DNA from: a virus
DNA: 64,000 nt
IMG/VR virus record: IMGVR_UViG_3300047557_004034
Span: 81,699 to 145,698 of that record
Direction: 5' to 3' (one strand)
The translations under genes and the position numbers were made by a program. The notes under the pieces were generated by a model. The model was not told the origin of the DNA. It worked only from the letters and a program-made list of their open reading frames with translations, and ran no database searches. Below are positions 1-9,714 of the stretch, piece after piece. Within the stretch, counting starts at the first letter, position 1, and every line of letters starts with the position of its first letter.

Positions 1-489
1 GGGGTCATTGTAGTTTTTTAATGTTTCGTAAAAGTATTCGAGAAAATTTTTTTTATATAGAAACGCTTGGGCACACAGCGCATTGGAAACTTTTCCGAAG
101 TGCTCGTCTAATCTTTCTATTCTTGCACCTTCCAAAGGTCTAGTACCCATACCAATTAAATCAAAGTATTCGTAGAACCTATCCCACTTTTCAAAAACTT
201 TGTCGAAGTCGGATTCTTGTGTACCATTCATTACTTTAATATCATCTTCGAATATTATTATCGACTCTAACCCTTCATCAAGTGCTATTTTTGCACAATT
301 CAAAAACGCTTGAGTTGCACCATAAACTCTCCATTCAGGGTCTTCGTAAATTACACCATCAATATACTCATATCCATCGAATCCGTATTTTTTTAATACA
401 AGTTCCGTTTCGTATTTTCTATCCATCCTATAAGGTAAATTTATTACAAATCCCTTATCGGCAATTTTCTTTCCTTTATAAGAAACCAT
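1..489 (-). CDS. Glycosyltransferase family 25-like (partial, runs off window start)
   Basis: Not in the ORF track because its stop lies outside the window. The ATG at 489 overlaps the TGA of the upstream gene. My translation MVSYKGKKIADKGFVINLPYRMDRK...SIIIFEDDIK carries the GT25 hallmarks VINL..R.DR and IFEDD. Confidence 0.75.
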   Translation of the reverse strand, partial: MVSYKGKKIADKGFVINLPYRMDRKYETELVLKKYGFDGYEYIDGVIYEDPEWRVYGATQAFLNCAKIALDEGLESIIIFEDDIKVMNGTQESDFDKVFEKWDRFYEYFDLIGMGTRPLEGARIERLDEHFGKVSNALCAQAFLYKKNFLEYFYETLKNYNDP

Positions 490-1763
490 CAACTGACAGC
501 ATTATGATTTAACTGACCTGTTAATCTATCACACCAACCTTTAGATTCTGAGTGAGGCCATACAACCCAATACTTTGGTAATTCTTGTGTTGGGAATTCT
601 CTCCATACCTTGCAATATCCATCAGGGTCTCTCATAAATCCTGCAATCTCATTTTTGTCGGCGTCTTTTCTAAAGATAGTTTCATCCTTATCATCGTGGA
701 AGGCAACAACCCAAAAATCATAATCTTTTTCAGGTACTTGACTGTATGAAACATCAATACAGTGTTTGAATATTTTTGTGAAATCCGCTTTCCATTCCTC
801 TTCTGTTTCGTAGTTATACGGGTTTGGTGGATAGTTTTTATCCAATGTATATTTTTGAATAGAACGTCTTTCGAATAATATTCCTGAATATTTTTCAAAA
901 TCTTTTAAAGTTCTAACTGAGCCAAAACCGAACTCACCATCGTGACCTTCTTGAGTTAATCCATCCATACCGAATAACTTTCTATTCAAAAGATGTGAAT
1001 GTTGGTTTTTCTTAACCCATTCTTTGTCATCATCCCATTGCTTTGTTCTACCCTTTCTTGTATATTCATGATATACAACAGGAACATGTGGATGGAACAA
1101 GTCATAACCCCAAGTGTAAGCTCTCGCAGCAATTGAAATTTCTTCTCCGTGGAAATAGTATTCAGGATTGTGTTGAACTTCTTTTGAAAACTCACCGAGT
1201 GTAAAACAGAAGTGAGCAGAATAGAATCTCGCAGTTACAGGTTTTTTCAACTCTCTCCATCTTGGAATTGTTTCAGGTAAAAAGAAGATTGCACCTTCAG
1301 GAATAAATCTATCAAACACCATTCTCCATGGGTCTTTTGCTCTTCCTGCTGGGTCATTATCAGGGTCAAAAGATGGTACATAACCCGTAAGTAGAGGTTT
1401 CATATATCCATCTTTTTGTAGACCCTTAATCATATTAATTAAAGTTTCATCCCAATTCTTTTCGAATCTCATGTGGGAATCTATTTGCATTGTATATTTT
1501 TCATCTTTATACAATTGTTGTACTAGATGTCTTGCCCAACATACACCTTTAGCTTCTTGGTATGGTATGTCAAGAATTCTGAATCTTTTATCATCTCTCC
1601 ATTCATCTAAATTATCAAACCCGTCTGTTTCAGCATATTGTCTTGCAATACCTATCACTAAGTTTTTTGGATTTTTTGCATTTGCCAACATATCTTTTAT
1701 CGTTGGGACAAGTTGTGGGTCTCTGTAAGACGCAATCTGAATGAATATTTTATTATTTGCCAT
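489..1763 (-). CDS. GT60-like polypeptide/hydroxyproline alpha-GlcNAc transferase (Gnt1/PF11397-like)
   Basis: Motifs IFIQIASYRDP, GVCWAR, QIDSHMRF (DxH), FHGEEI..AARAYTWGYDLFHP, VYHEY match the Skp1-GlcNAc-transferase family. Confidence 0.85.
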   Translation of the reverse strand: MANNKIFIQIASYRDPQLVPTIKDMLANAKNPKNLVIGIARQYAETDGFDNLDEWRDDKRFRILDIPYQEAKGVCWARHLVQQLYKDEKYTMQIDSHMRFEKNWDETLINMIKGLQKDGYMKPLLTGYVPSFDPDNDPAGRAKDPWRMVFDRFIPEGAIFFLPETIPRWRELKKPVTARFYSAHFCFTLGEFSKEVQHNPEYYFHGEEISIAARAYTWGYDLFHPHVPVVYHEYTRKGRTKQWDDDKEWVKKNQHSHLLNRKLFGMDGLTQEGHDGEFGFGSVRTLKDFEKYSGILFERRSIQKYTLDKNYPPNPYNYETEEEWKADFTKIFKHCIDVSYSQVPEKDYDFWVVAFHDDKDETIFRKDADKNEIAGFMRDPDGYCKVWREFPTQELPKYWVVWPHSESKGWCDRLTGQLNHNAVS

Positions 1764-7100: not shown

Positions 7101-9714
7101 ATCCGTTTGTTGTATTGAATGTGTTGTCGTAGCTACCGTTAGAATTAATTCTTACAATATGTTCCGCAACATTACCGTTATAATTTGTAAACGAACCTGC
7201 AACAATCAATTTACCATCAGATTGTCGTGCAATAGAGAAAACCGAATTATCAGGTAATCCATTCAAGAATGAATTATCTAAAGTTCCATTACTGTTTAAT
7301 CTACAGAAATAATTTACAGGATTTCCATCATAATTTGAAAACTGACCACCTACTAATATTTTATCATCAGGAAGTACGAGTAACGATGTAATTGTACCAT
7401 CAAATCCTGTACCTGTAATGAATGTTGCATCATAAGAACCGTTTGTATTCAATCTCACAATTCTTCCTGTTGGATTTCCGTCAAAAGAAGTGAAATTTCC
7501 ACCATAAACGAATTTACCATTGGATTGAGCTTCAAAATATGTTGGGTGTCCCCCAACAAATCCCGTACCCAAATTATAACTTGTATCTATATCTCCATTC
7601 AAGAAAAGTCTTACTAAACCTGGAGAGCTAGTACCACTAAAAGTATTGAAAGAACCTGCGACATATAGTCTATCACCATATTGGTCAATGTGGTTCACAT
7701 TACCATCGTTTGGTCCGTATTCTACACAAGCTTGAGAAGTACTTGGAGTAATAGTTACGGTAGGTGTAAATGTTGGTGTAATTGAAGTTGTTGGTGTAAT
7801 TGTAGGTGTAGGTGTGACCGTTGGTGTTGGAGTAGGTGTTGCTGTTGCGGGTACTGGTGGTTCTTCACATTTTAAACAGAATGGGTCTAATAACCCGTAT
7901 CTATTTTTCAAGAGTCTGAAGTTGTGTCTAACTTGACCAGCGTTCAATGGTTCAGAATACATTCTAAATGCGCTAATATCACCAATGAAACTACCACCAA
8001 AAAACTTTTCCAAACGAATGTGAGTTGTCAAGCCCGAATATTCAGTTTCATCTAAAATTTCTGTTGTTAAACACTCAGGGTCTTGTTGATAGGTCATGCC
8101 CGTTAAAGTCACGGGACAACCTGAAAGTGTTAAGTTATCGTGTAATCCTTGTGTTCCCCCACCCAAAGAAATATTATATGCAACACCCACTTGTGTTTCA
8201 CGAGCGGTGTTTAGAGGTCTTGGTATAATTTCTTCGAAGTTTTCAACAACCAAAAATAATTTACCATTGACGTAAAATCTAAAAGAACCTAATCTATCAT
8301 TTTTTTCATCTACCCATCTTTCAGTGATATTAACGACTTCGACTGTCGCTGGGTCATAAGGTATTTCTTGTGTTATTGGTGGTTCAATAAGACTAACACT
8401 ATTGTGAGCTGATGACGCAGTGAATACTGTTTTGACTATTTCACCCAACCCACCTTTATAAAGTAAGTCACAATCATCCCAATAGGTATATCTTTGGAAG
8501 ACTGCATCAATCTGAACCCATCTTTCTTCTTGACTATAAGTTGTTCCTGAACAATCATCAAAAATTCCTCTTGTTGAACACCATTCAGTTACACTTGTTC
8601 CGGTAGTGTAAGTTATTCCTGTAGAACAAACTCCGGTAGTTTCACAACCACCAGTTATTCTATAAGTTTTTACACACAACCTTGGACTACCTGTATCACC
8701 ACTGAGTCTCAAAGATAAAGCATTCGAAACACCATCATATAACGGGTTTAACTCAGGGATGGATGCATATGTAGTACAATTACAAGGACAATTTCCACAG
8801 GCACAATTCTGAGAAGTAACTCCAGATTGTTGATAAACATATCCACATGTTGATGCGGTATACCCTGTTTGAGAACAACCGCAAGTTTGTAGACAATTTA
8901 ATCCTTCTGTTACTCTTGTATAACCCGAATCAGTTATCGGTGAACCATTTGCATAATGATAAAATTTGTTTTCTGCTCTAGTTCCATAATAGAAGAAAAT
9001 ACCTTTGTTGTCAGGATACCTTTCATTCAAACCTACGCTCGTATCACCTGTCCATCTGTATCTTAACATGAACTCTGATGACCAACCTAAATTAAATCTT
9101 TCAGGTAAAACTTCATAATCATAACCAAATGACTTGTAAAATCCTTGGTAAAATCCTCCGTCGAATTTTATATAATTTCCGACAGCATTTGCATCATTAT
9201 CAATTGATAAATTATATGTGTAAGAATCGTCGTTATATATTCTATCAGAAGTAGTTGTGAACCCTGTGATTGGGTGCATCTTAAATCTTCTATCGTATTT
9301 GTATCTTGAAAATTTATCCGCAGTAGAAGTATATAATCCTGTATTTAATTCTATCGTTTCGCCTGAAAATCTTTTTACCAAACCATTATCCATCCCTGTC
9401 AGACCAACATCACACAATTCAGTTTTTGCAGAACAAACCAACAAATCGATTCCTAAAGGGTTCCAATAATTTTCTGAAACAATTACGTCACTATCAAAGT
9501 TACCACAATTGATACAATTAATAGTGTTTGGACTATTGATGTCAAAATTTAACGGCATCCTATTGCCGTCATCTTCACCTATTAAAAATGGTGAAAAAAT
9601 AACTTCTTCATCGTAATCACGTTCATCCGATGCCAATGAGATATCGGTAATTTCATTTAGAGGTTTAAGATATAACCTCTTGAACACATATTGATTTATA
9701 TTCTGATATGACAT
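4183..9714 (-). CDS. 1843-aa multidomain virion-surface/tail-fibre-like protein (LamG-like domains, beta-propeller repeats, Pro/Thr-rich linkers)
   Basis: Two C-terminal LamG-like domains ([31 protein letters not shown]). Repeated QPDGKII.GG.F...RLN.DG..D.TF units (delta-60-like). Five (TP)n stretches and a Cys-rich N-terminal half. Confidence 0.75.
4862..7860 (-). repeat. Pro/Thr-rich mucin-like coding repeats at approx. 4862-5045, 5675-5995, 6078-6125, 6580-6640 and 7735-7860
   Basis: (TPT/TET/TIT)n tracts in the translation; gttggt/gtaggt/gttgga hexamers on the + strand. Confidence 0.85.

Follow-up and report, generated by a model that had tools for sequence, protein, structure and literature searches.

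Do tailed phages attach O-linked glycans to their own structural proteins in the cytoplasm, using an enzyme related to those that initiate mucin-type glycosylation in eukaryotes? The question is raised by a 64,000-nucleotide (nt) stretch of virus DNA, positions 81,699 to 145,698 of IMG/VR record IMGVR_UViG_3300047557_004034 (hereafter, the window). At one end of it, a gene for a glycosyltransferase of family GT60 lies directly downstream of, and in the same orientation as, two genes for Ser/Thr-rich repeat proteins, as an earlier note made from the sequence alone had pointed out, though a terminator-like hairpin stands between them. We hold with moderate confidence that the phage O-glycosylates its own structural proteins by a soluble pathway in the cytoplasm. 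This reading builds on the genes present, on the family and fold of the enzyme, on the solubility of the encoded proteins, and on a neighborhood association in many lineages. Pro-Thr tracts are the best-supported candidate acceptor, and collagen-like arrays are less well supported. The features that carry the argument are as follows.

489..1763, minus strand: GT60-family (PF11397) soluble GT-A glycosyltransferase of 424 amino acids (aa), from Pfam, PHROG, an AlphaFold2 (AF2) model, and a fold search
1839..4157, minus strand: 772-aa fiber-like protein with three Gly-X-Y (GSSGTS) arrays between globular domains, candidate acceptor, from Pfam, a repeat scan, and PHROG
4183..9714, minus strand: 1843-aa modular protein, candidate acceptor, from Pfam, a repeat scan, and PHROG
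50815..51723, minus strand: 302-aa Pro-Thr protein within the head/structural gene block, third candidate acceptor, from a repeat scan

With the window as its final 64 kb, the virus record spans 145.7 kb and was judged to be 42% complete. Among the genes of the window are those for a terminase, a portal, a prohead protease, and a major head protein. Collinear with the window are the first 129 kb of G001, a relative whose 321-kb genome is complete and has terminal repeats. Given these structural genes and the collinearity with G001, the source is therefore a jumbo tailed phage, with a G+C content of approximately 32%. Its nearest database neighbors are freshwater metagenome contigs.

The 424-aa enzyme is a true member of the PF11397/GT60 family. 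It matches the PF11397 profile ("GlcNAc") at an E value of 2.1e-68 and 231.8 bits against a cut-off of 21, aligning profile positions 2-43 and 96-350 of 352, and the GT60-like call of the earlier note is upheld. PF11397 is the sole Pfam match of the protein, which also belongs with a phage glycosyltransferase family (phrog_24687, E 4.8e-162). GT60 enzymes are described in a review as polypeptide alpha-N-acetylglucosamine (GlcNAc) transferases related to GT27 but without its lectin domain, and the family includes the Skp1 hydroxyproline (Hyp)-GlcNAc transferase (PMC8724618). The AF2 model has a GT-A fold (predicted local distance difference test score, 94.8), with a catalytic domain at approximately residues 1-305 and a small C-terminal beta-sandwich at residues 305-420. 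In a fold search with this model, the top 29 PDB entries were all catalytic domains of GT27 polypeptide N-acetylgalactosaminyltransferases (ppGalNAc-Ts), with Z scores of 19.2-22.4 and root mean square deviations of 3.2-3.9 Å over 264-287 residues at 11-15% identity. The next-best GT-A enzymes reached a Z score of at most 16.8 (TarP, 15.7), and the kinship to mucin-initiating GT27 enzymes proposed earlier is upheld at the level of fold. This similarity is structural only: neither of the sequence marks of GT27, the GT2-type catalytic profile and the ricin B lectin domain, is found in the protein, and a phmmer search against PDB sequences returned no chain at E <0.01, relatives being reached via the fold search alone.

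Among 49 homologues at 34-97% identity, D95-x-H97 (D95-S-H97 here), H232, E207, E208, and R214 are invariant. By analogy with GT27, D95, H97, and H232 would serve as Mn2+ ligands. Family and fold together make the enzyme a candidate peptide-initiating N-acetylhexosamine (HexNAc) transferase. Residues 305-420 gave FN3/Ig-like matches at Z scores of 7.2 or less, which is in the noise range, and there was no beta-trefoil among the matches listed. A ricin-like lectin role for this domain was considered and is unsupported, the domain being an FN3/Ig-like sandwich instead.

The (GSSGTS)n protein of the earlier note is present and is in fact a collagen-type Gly-X-Y protein. Its 772 aa match Pfam Collagen (PF01391) at E 1.1e-47 and hold strict register in uninterrupted runs at residues 48-98, 222-344, and 423-596 (51, 123, and 174 residues; 348 in total). 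Its composition is 26% Ser, 12% Thr, 21% Gly, and 1.6% Pro, with Pro-free arrays, whereas collagen triple helices usually owe their stability to Pro/Hyp; many PHROG tail-fiber families match it, and its gene contains tandem repeats at the DNA level. In the 1843-aa protein, Pro-Thr linker tracts lie between a Cys-rich N-terminal region, a DUF5122 beta-propeller of six blades, and two lectin-like LamG_3 domains, and its C-terminal LamG matches a PHROG virion structural protein family (phrog_8510). It contains exactly five P/T/S-rich tracts (residues 617-662, 1024-1048, 1193-1219, 1237-1349, and 1557-1626), the same number as the (TP)n tracts counted earlier. The third protein, previously called mucin-like, is 28.5% Thr and 14.9% Pro, with a Pro-Thr tract of approximately 170 residues (approximately residues 73-246) flanked by two small domains; the counterpart of its gene in G001 is at 117171-118178. 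The earlier statement that none of the three has an evident signal peptide also stands: the 772-aa and 1843-aa proteins have no 19-residue window with a Kyte-Doolittle mean of 1.6, and the N terminus of the 302-aa protein, MALVTYLVAPCAGG, is without a basic n-region.

Altogether, the 146-kb record encodes eight proteins with Pro-Thr or Gly-X-Y arrays. A second fiber block, on the minus strand at G000:C1:2-21439 and 60-82 kb before the window start, contains a 3072-aa protein (1677 of its residues in Gly-X-Y), an 1824-aa protein (1194 in Gly-X-Y), a pair of Pro-Thr proteins of approximately 615 aa each, and, where the contig ends, a Gly-X-Y gene that is truncated. There are 14 such repeat genes in G001, in approximately seven places.

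The GT60 gene is followed by further sugar-related genes, and a second cluster of this kind lies elsewhere in the window.

1..489, minus strand: GT25-like glycosyltransferase gene, 5' two-thirds in the window; the full gene encodes 233-234 aa (L003:17487-18188), from a weak PF01755 match and ESM Atlas
L003:11388-13061, 18.6-20.3 kb before the window start, minus strand: 557-aa HtrL/YibB-like protein with an N-terminal HtrL/YibB domain
14857..23284, plus strand: second soluble sugar cluster, from Pfam
25990..26796, plus strand: further GT2-family glycosyltransferase (PF00535, E 3.7e-07)

The stop codon of the GT60 gene overlaps the next ATG as TGATG, and translational coupling to the GT25-like gene is plausible, as the earlier note had it. 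The GT25 assignment itself is weakly supported, with 17-18 bits for PF01755 (E 0.003-0.006) under a cut-off of 24. In ESM Atlas language-model features, the protein scores 0.97 to viral GT25 clusters, and 22 of 30 matches carry PF01755. In G001, the corresponding position is taken by a gene that clearly encodes a GT25 (48.5 bits for PF01755), and its product is 28.6% identical to the GT25-like protein over 70 residues (E 1e-4). Beyond the window start, the GT60 operon continues on the same strand with the GT25-like gene, a weak methyltransferase match, a weak GT4-type match, and an unknown, then an FkbM methyltransferase, a GT10-like fucosyltransferase, and a CmcI-like sugar O-methyltransferase. 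Next come the 557-aa HtrL/YibB-like protein, a small unknown, and a family-B DNA polymerase. The cluster on the plus strand encodes a GT2_5+GT4 fusion, two GT2 enzymes, a Polysacc_synt_2 4,6-dehydratase-type enzyme, and a nucleotidyltransferase, together with a sugar O-methyltransferase, two unknowns, a GT10-like protein, and an epimerase. The sugar cluster that the earlier note placed at 12-27 kb is real but narrower, comprising 14857-23284 plus 25990-26796, and a role as sugar supplier is plausible.

The approximately 38 proteins of the two sugar clusters are all free of membrane-like segments, and they include neither a flippase or polymerase nor a polyprenyl-phosphate (lipid-carrier priming) transferase. 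The pathway as a whole is soluble, and its acceptor must be cytoplasmic.

How the operon and the fiber genes are transcribed is a separate matter, on which one element bears directly.

1787..1812, minus strand: intrinsic-terminator-like hairpin with an 11-bp stem (5 G-C pairs) and a loop of 4, then TTTTATTTTT; the best of the region

The hairpin (1812-1787) lies within the 75 nt that separate the collagen-like gene from the GT60 gene, and no comparable terminator was detected in the enzyme operon until past the DNA polymerase gene. Because a strong terminator stands at this point, the fiber genes and the enzyme operon are probably separate transcripts and perhaps differ in timing. On the minus strand, TATTTAT occurs 14 nt upstream of the start of the 772-aa gene, 11 nt upstream of the 1843-aa gene, and 15 nt upstream of the 302-aa gene (4171-4177, 9725-9731, and 51738-51744, respectively), and also 6-31 nt before several head genes; the GT60 gene start is without it. 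As a mark of late promoters this motif was set aside, its window total of 30 against 31.8 expected being that of chance, with its positions alone suggestive.

To place the locus among its relatives, we drew on more than 7,000 metagenomic PF11397/GT60 proteins (4,591 clusters at 50% identity), 570 IMG/VR loci, and at least 567 loci in bacterial species genomes. Three sets were compared: the 80 closest of the IMG/VR loci, at 81-98% identity (the clade); 80 viral loci outside the clade, with 23 viral GT60 lineages at 48-72% identity to the phage enzyme; and 80 bacterial loci. The distant lineages came from an alignment-based scan of viral contigs, whereas single-protein scans gave just 1 and 4 loci. 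Upstream flank of at least 600 nt is available for 76 close-relative loci, and every one of them has one or more co-oriented Pro-Thr or Gly-X-Y genes directly upstream of GT60; no such gene was found in the 10 kb downstream. The occupant of the slot varies: one Pro-Thr family holds it in 67 loci, a second Pro-Thr family holds it in 4, and a collagen-like gene holds it in the source phage and 2 others, with a 683-aa Pro-Thr protein in G001 where the source phage has its collagen-like protein. Across the 23 further viral lineages, the Pro-Thr/Gly-X-Y open reading frames (ORFs) per 2-kb bin from GT60 number 37, 15, 11, 8, and 3. Many contigs stop a few kilobases upstream of GT60, which would match the breaks that repeats induce in assembly.

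The most faithful neighbor of GT60 in phages and bacteria alike is the HtrL/YibB-like gene, found with it in 79/80 clade loci, 58/80 other viral loci, and 30/80 bacterial loci. It is co-oriented with GT60 in 79/80 clade loci and in 57 of the 58 other viral and 29 of the 30 bacterial matches, often directly adjacent in bacteria. The 557-aa protein, whose C-terminal half of approximately 300 residues is uncharacterized and whose Atlas cluster of 3145 members is nearly all viral, is probably a second transferase. The earlier note had cast GT25 as the extension partner. A GT25 does occupy the slot after GT60 in 65 of the 80 clade loci, the source phage's copy being a divergent allele, but the widely conserved partner is the HtrL/YibB-like protein. 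Six further genes, the methyltransferases and GT10 included, separate GT60 from the HtrL-like gene in the source phage, and these recur in only 1-8 of 80 relatives. The conserved core is thus the repeat protein or proteins, GT60, and the HtrL-like protein, with the extension genes as a variable insert. This would look like an initiating enzyme accompanied by strain-specific elaboration of the glycan.

Cultured carriers of the homologue are solely XacN1, Xoo-sp13, CM1, and RAS14, in which it is close to the polymerase gene, with a 3100-3300-aa post-baseplate protein bearing C-terminal Pro-Thr tracts encoded 9 kb away. ORF334 of XacN1 is 46% identical to the 424-aa enzyme over 97% of the protein, and is 9 kb from a 3313-aa protein of this type and 12 kb from a 654-aa protein bearing a 162-residue Pro-Thr tract. 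XacN1 virions contain at least two periodic acid-Schiff-positive (glycoprotein-staining) bands, for which its authors suggested the transferases ORF328 and ORF334 as makers (PMC5852040). A literature search on GT60 in phages found nothing relevant.

In bacteria, strict Pro-Thr ORFs around the 80 GT60 loci fall off over successive 2-kb bins as 13, 4, 2, 0, and 0, with nearly equal flank, a clustering with a binomial p of 4e-5 (3e-4 after related loci were collapsed). The carriers of the tracts are unrelated to one another and include VgrG, LamG, fn3+BNR, PqqD-like, and crAss-muzzle-like proteins. Eight Burkholderiales loci (L142, L160, L164, L168, L182, L186, L188, and L190) encode VgrG 1-5 kb from the GT60 homologue, and all eight VgrGs have Pro/Thr/Ser/Glu repeats at the C terminus, among them (TP)n, (TEPPP)n, (PSEEP)n, and (TPEP)n. 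The clearest layout is in Ralstonia.

L188:9965-11362 and L188:12282-15146: GT60/VgrG pair, Ralstonia sp. 25C chromosome 1

Here, the GT60 homologue is last in a tagJ-tssE-tssF-tssG-tssA operon of core type VI secretion system (T6SS) genes, with tssM nearby, and the VgrG tail is a (TP)n run of approximately 65 units. These arrangements suggest glycosylated T6SS spike tails. VgrG, like phage fibers, is assembled in the cytoplasm and could thus be within reach of a soluble transferase. A literature search on VgrG glycosylation found nothing relevant. In a Gemmatimonadaceae metagenome-assembled genome, a PqqD-like peptide-recognition domain fused to a Pro-Thr tract is encoded 40 nt upstream of the GT60 homologue (L132:9221-9961, plus strand), followed by the homologue and then an HtrL-like gene, an arrangement that may point to a ribosomal peptide product being glycosylated.

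Several observations weigh against the view that the phage glycosylates its own structural proteins. With repeats masked, 67 of 77 upstream proteins fall in one family, and inherited synteny may account for most of the association in viruses. Just 8 of the 23 further viral lineages and 13 of the 80 bacterial loci have a repeat gene within 2 kb of GT60, and five of the eight repeat proteins of the phage itself sit 60 kb from it. Pro-Thr tracts are common without GT60, because a (TP)8-coding DNA pattern occurs in 57 of 201 Burkholderiaceae genomes and PF11397 in 6 of 200. At the genome level there is no association between the two in this family (3/6 versus 54/195), the (TP)8 DNA pattern being frame-blind and matched by a reversed control too. 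The link is local, not genome-wide, and the co-occurrence foreseen in the earlier note holds at the neighborhood scale, in many phage lineages and in bacteria, but not at the genome level in Burkholderiaceae. The terminator split and the running of the operon into the DNA polymerase gene mean that co-expression with the fiber genes is not implied. Finally, fold similarity is evidence of ancestry and not of acceptor.

If the pathway exists, it might run as follows. The GT60-family enzyme would move a first HexNAc, probably alpha-GlcNAc from a uridine diphosphate (UDP)-sugar held at a D-x-H...H-type Mn2+ site, onto Thr/Ser hydroxyls of the Pro-Thr linker tracts, and possibly of the Gly-Ser/Thr collagen-like arrays, of fiber-like proteins. 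The HtrL/YibB-like protein would then lengthen the chain, as would GT25 in the clade of the source phage. In the source phage, the inserted GT4-like and GT10-like transferases and O-methyltransferases would elaborate and cap the glycan. The outcome would be stiffened, protease-resistant, glycan-decorated fibers. The proposal of the earlier note that the phage O-glycosylates its own fibers in the cytoplasm agrees with family, fold, solubility, and neighborhood, whereas the donor sugar, the acceptor residues, and a "mucin-like coat" are points that we, too, infer, as we do protein as the acceptor, the sequence of the reactions, and what the phage would gain from them.

The acceptor could instead be something other than these Thr and Ser residues. 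The sugar clusters might build a free or host-directed glycan (capsule, lipopolysaccharide, or host surface sugars, for example to block superinfection), with GT60 acting on a sugar or small molecule and its fiber neighbors incidental. The Escherichia coli namesake of the HtrL/YibB family sits in the lipopolysaccharide core locus, which counts in favor of this, as do the nucleotide-sugar enzymes in the 14857-23284 cluster and a comparison of jumbo phages that reads such clusters as diversifying outer polysaccharides to pre-empt attachment by other phages (PMC7824862). We nevertheless consider it unlikely: among the approximately 38 cluster proteins there is neither a membrane protein nor any flippase, polymerase, or transferase that primes a lipid carrier; the GT60-family fold is nearest the peptide-acting GT27; and the local enrichment of Pro-Thr tracts on unrelated carriers, including the cytoplasmically assembled VgrG, would be left unexplained. 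A little less probable still is a route resembling that of Skp1, in which a phage 2-oxoglutarate (2OG)-Fe(II) prolyl hydroxylase makes Hyp in the Pro-Thr tracts and GT60 adds GlcNAc to it. GT60 does take in the Skp1 Hyp-GlcNAc transferase (PMC8724618), and in two metagenomic proteins (P0126, 2461 aa; P0127, 1641 aa), several GT60 domains are joined to 2OG-Fe(II) oxygenase domains of PF13640, a protein of this sort being named a Tpa1-like proline hydroxylase by one source. The three PF13640 genes of G001, however, are 40-90 kb from GT60 and do not adjoin Pro-Thr genes, PF13640 takes in numerous hydroxylases with targets other than proline, and the collagen-like arrays are nearly proline-free. 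No PF13640 gene was found in the 146 kb of the phage record, which is 42% complete, so this absence means little. As an observation in its own right, the tandem GT60 domains of P0126 and P0127 are also fused to GT2-like domains, and P0126 contains a peroxiredoxin domain too.

We see only a small chance that the enzyme modifies host proteins or nonstructural phage proteins, in a takeover or effector role like that of bacterial toxin glycosyltransferases. The operon shares its direction with the DNA polymerase gene and is without the TATTTAT found before fiber genes, which suggests an earlier expression class, and the Burkholderiales homologues are in T6SS loci, where effectors are common. Yet the Ralstonia homologue follows tssA in a structural operon convergent to vgrG, unlike cargo genes, which follow vgrG; an effector role leaves the recurrent Pro-Thr tails of neighboring proteins unexplained; and XacN1 virions contain glycoproteins. 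That the enzyme hypermodifies phage DNA, placing a sugar on a hydroxymethylated base for restriction evasion, seems to us very improbable. Phage GT-A enzymes that glycosylate 5-hydroxymethylcytosine are known, but these are JGT- and TarP-like enzymes with R...DDD...EDY/F motifs (bioRxiv 10.1101/2023.12.21.572611), and our model scores a Z of 15.7 to TarP, the solved structure nearest the DNA-glycosylating GT-As, versus 22 to ppGalNAc-Ts. The operon does adjoin the DNA polymerase gene in the clade and in XacN1-like phages, and G001 has a thymidylate-synthase-family gene; this ThyA-family gene lies at a distance of 90 kb and is a full-length match to the canonical family. No thymidylate-synthase homologue was found in the phage record, an absence that means little at 42% completeness and with one in G001, and no Tet/JBP oxygenase was found in the record or G001 by a search that was blank in controls too and is thus uninformative. 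Bacterial homologues occur in T6SS and other non-DNA contexts.

Glycosylation of the phage's own structural proteins has parallels in several known systems. The closest are the GT60 enzymes of protists, namely Dictyostelium Gnt1, which acts on Skp1-Hyp, and the mucin-type polypeptide alpha-GlcNAc-transferases of Dictyostelium and Trypanosoma cruzi. The phage enzyme shares with them PF11397, a soluble GT-A fold, and D-x-H, and like them it has no ricin-type lectin domain (PMC8724618). It is likewise found beside Thr/Pro-rich candidate acceptors that resemble protist mucin-type domains, and the GT25-like and GT10-like genes downstream make Gal- and Fuc-type extension logic possible. It differs in belonging to a viral/bacterial branch, and not a eukaryotic one, that conserves an extra C-terminal FN3/Ig-like beta-sandwich of approximately 115 residues, and in having an HtrL/YibB-like partner and not the enzymes of the Skp1 pathway. 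The GT27 initiators of animals and Toxoplasma provide the nearest solved structures and share D-x-H and a distal His (the equivalence of the latter being drawn from alignment), whereas the phage enzyme is without a ricin B lectin domain, a membrane anchor, or a secretory pathway.

The collagen-like array invites comparison with BclA of the Bacillus exosporium. BclA repeats are proline-containing GPT triplets, whereas those of the phage are Pro-free GSS/GTS triplets; the BclA transferases are not GT60 enzymes, and glycosylation of the phage array is hypothetical. BclA is a cytoplasm-made collagen-like Gly-X-Y filament bearing O-linked oligosaccharides with methylated/deoxy sugars (PMC6222408, PMC10050317), resembling the phage Gly-X-Y array next to transferases and sugar O-methyltransferases. 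For phages, the established precedent is the mycobacteriophages, whose own glycosyltransferases decorate their structural proteins in the cytoplasm (Freeman et al. 2023, Cell Host Microbe 31:1216, as summarized in PMC12619734). There, the glycans are described on the C termini of capsid and tail-tube proteins (PMC12619734), whereas the candidates here are Pro-Thr linkers and collagen-like fiber arrays. In XacN1, ORF334 is likewise near the DNA polymerase gene, although its downstream partner is a carbamoyltransferase; the authors left the glycoproteins unnamed and drew no link from ORF334 to GT60 or Pro-Thr tracts (PMC5852040).

A broader proposal, which we put forward tentatively and regard as doubtful in its full extent, is that the GT60-like enzyme, often with an HtrL/YibB-like partner, may be a widespread prokaryotic and viral module for cytoplasmic "mucin-type" O-glycosylation. 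Its targets would be the Pro/Thr-rich tails and linkers of proteins that are built into contractile-injection machines in the cytoplasm (phage fibers and T6SS VgrG), and in the source phage it might also stabilize the Pro-free collagen-like helices. Such a module would be a counterpart, possibly the evolutionary source, of eukaryotic GT60/GT27 initiation. If this is true, tailed phages, and probably some T6SS, use a homologue of a eukaryotic mucin initiator on Thr/Pro-rich segments in the cytoplasm. Virion glycosylation would then reach past mycobacteriophages to abundant freshwater jumbo phages, and the ubiquitous Pro-Thr "linkers" of phage fibers would gain a function. There would be implications for phage host recognition, protease resistance, and immune visibility, and for the origin of mucin-type O-glycosylation.

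Two other genes in the window have unusual architectures. At 60568-63909 on the plus strand is a 1113-aa outer-membrane barrel resembling a TonB-dependent receptor (CarboxypepD_reg plus OMP_b-brl_4), with a signal-peptide-like N-terminal hydrophobic segment and a G+C content of 39% against 32% for the phage. A host flank or chimera at the window end was ruled out, the gene being present and syntenic in G001 at 78% aa identity, and a phage-encoded outer-membrane receptor-like protein of this kind is unusual. The other gene, at 51773-53398 on the minus strand, adjoins that of the 302-aa Pro-Thr protein at 50815-51723 and encodes 541 aa in an odd lysin-like architecture, combining a nucleotidyltransferase-like N terminus with a peptidoglycan-binding domain and a weak glucosaminidase match.

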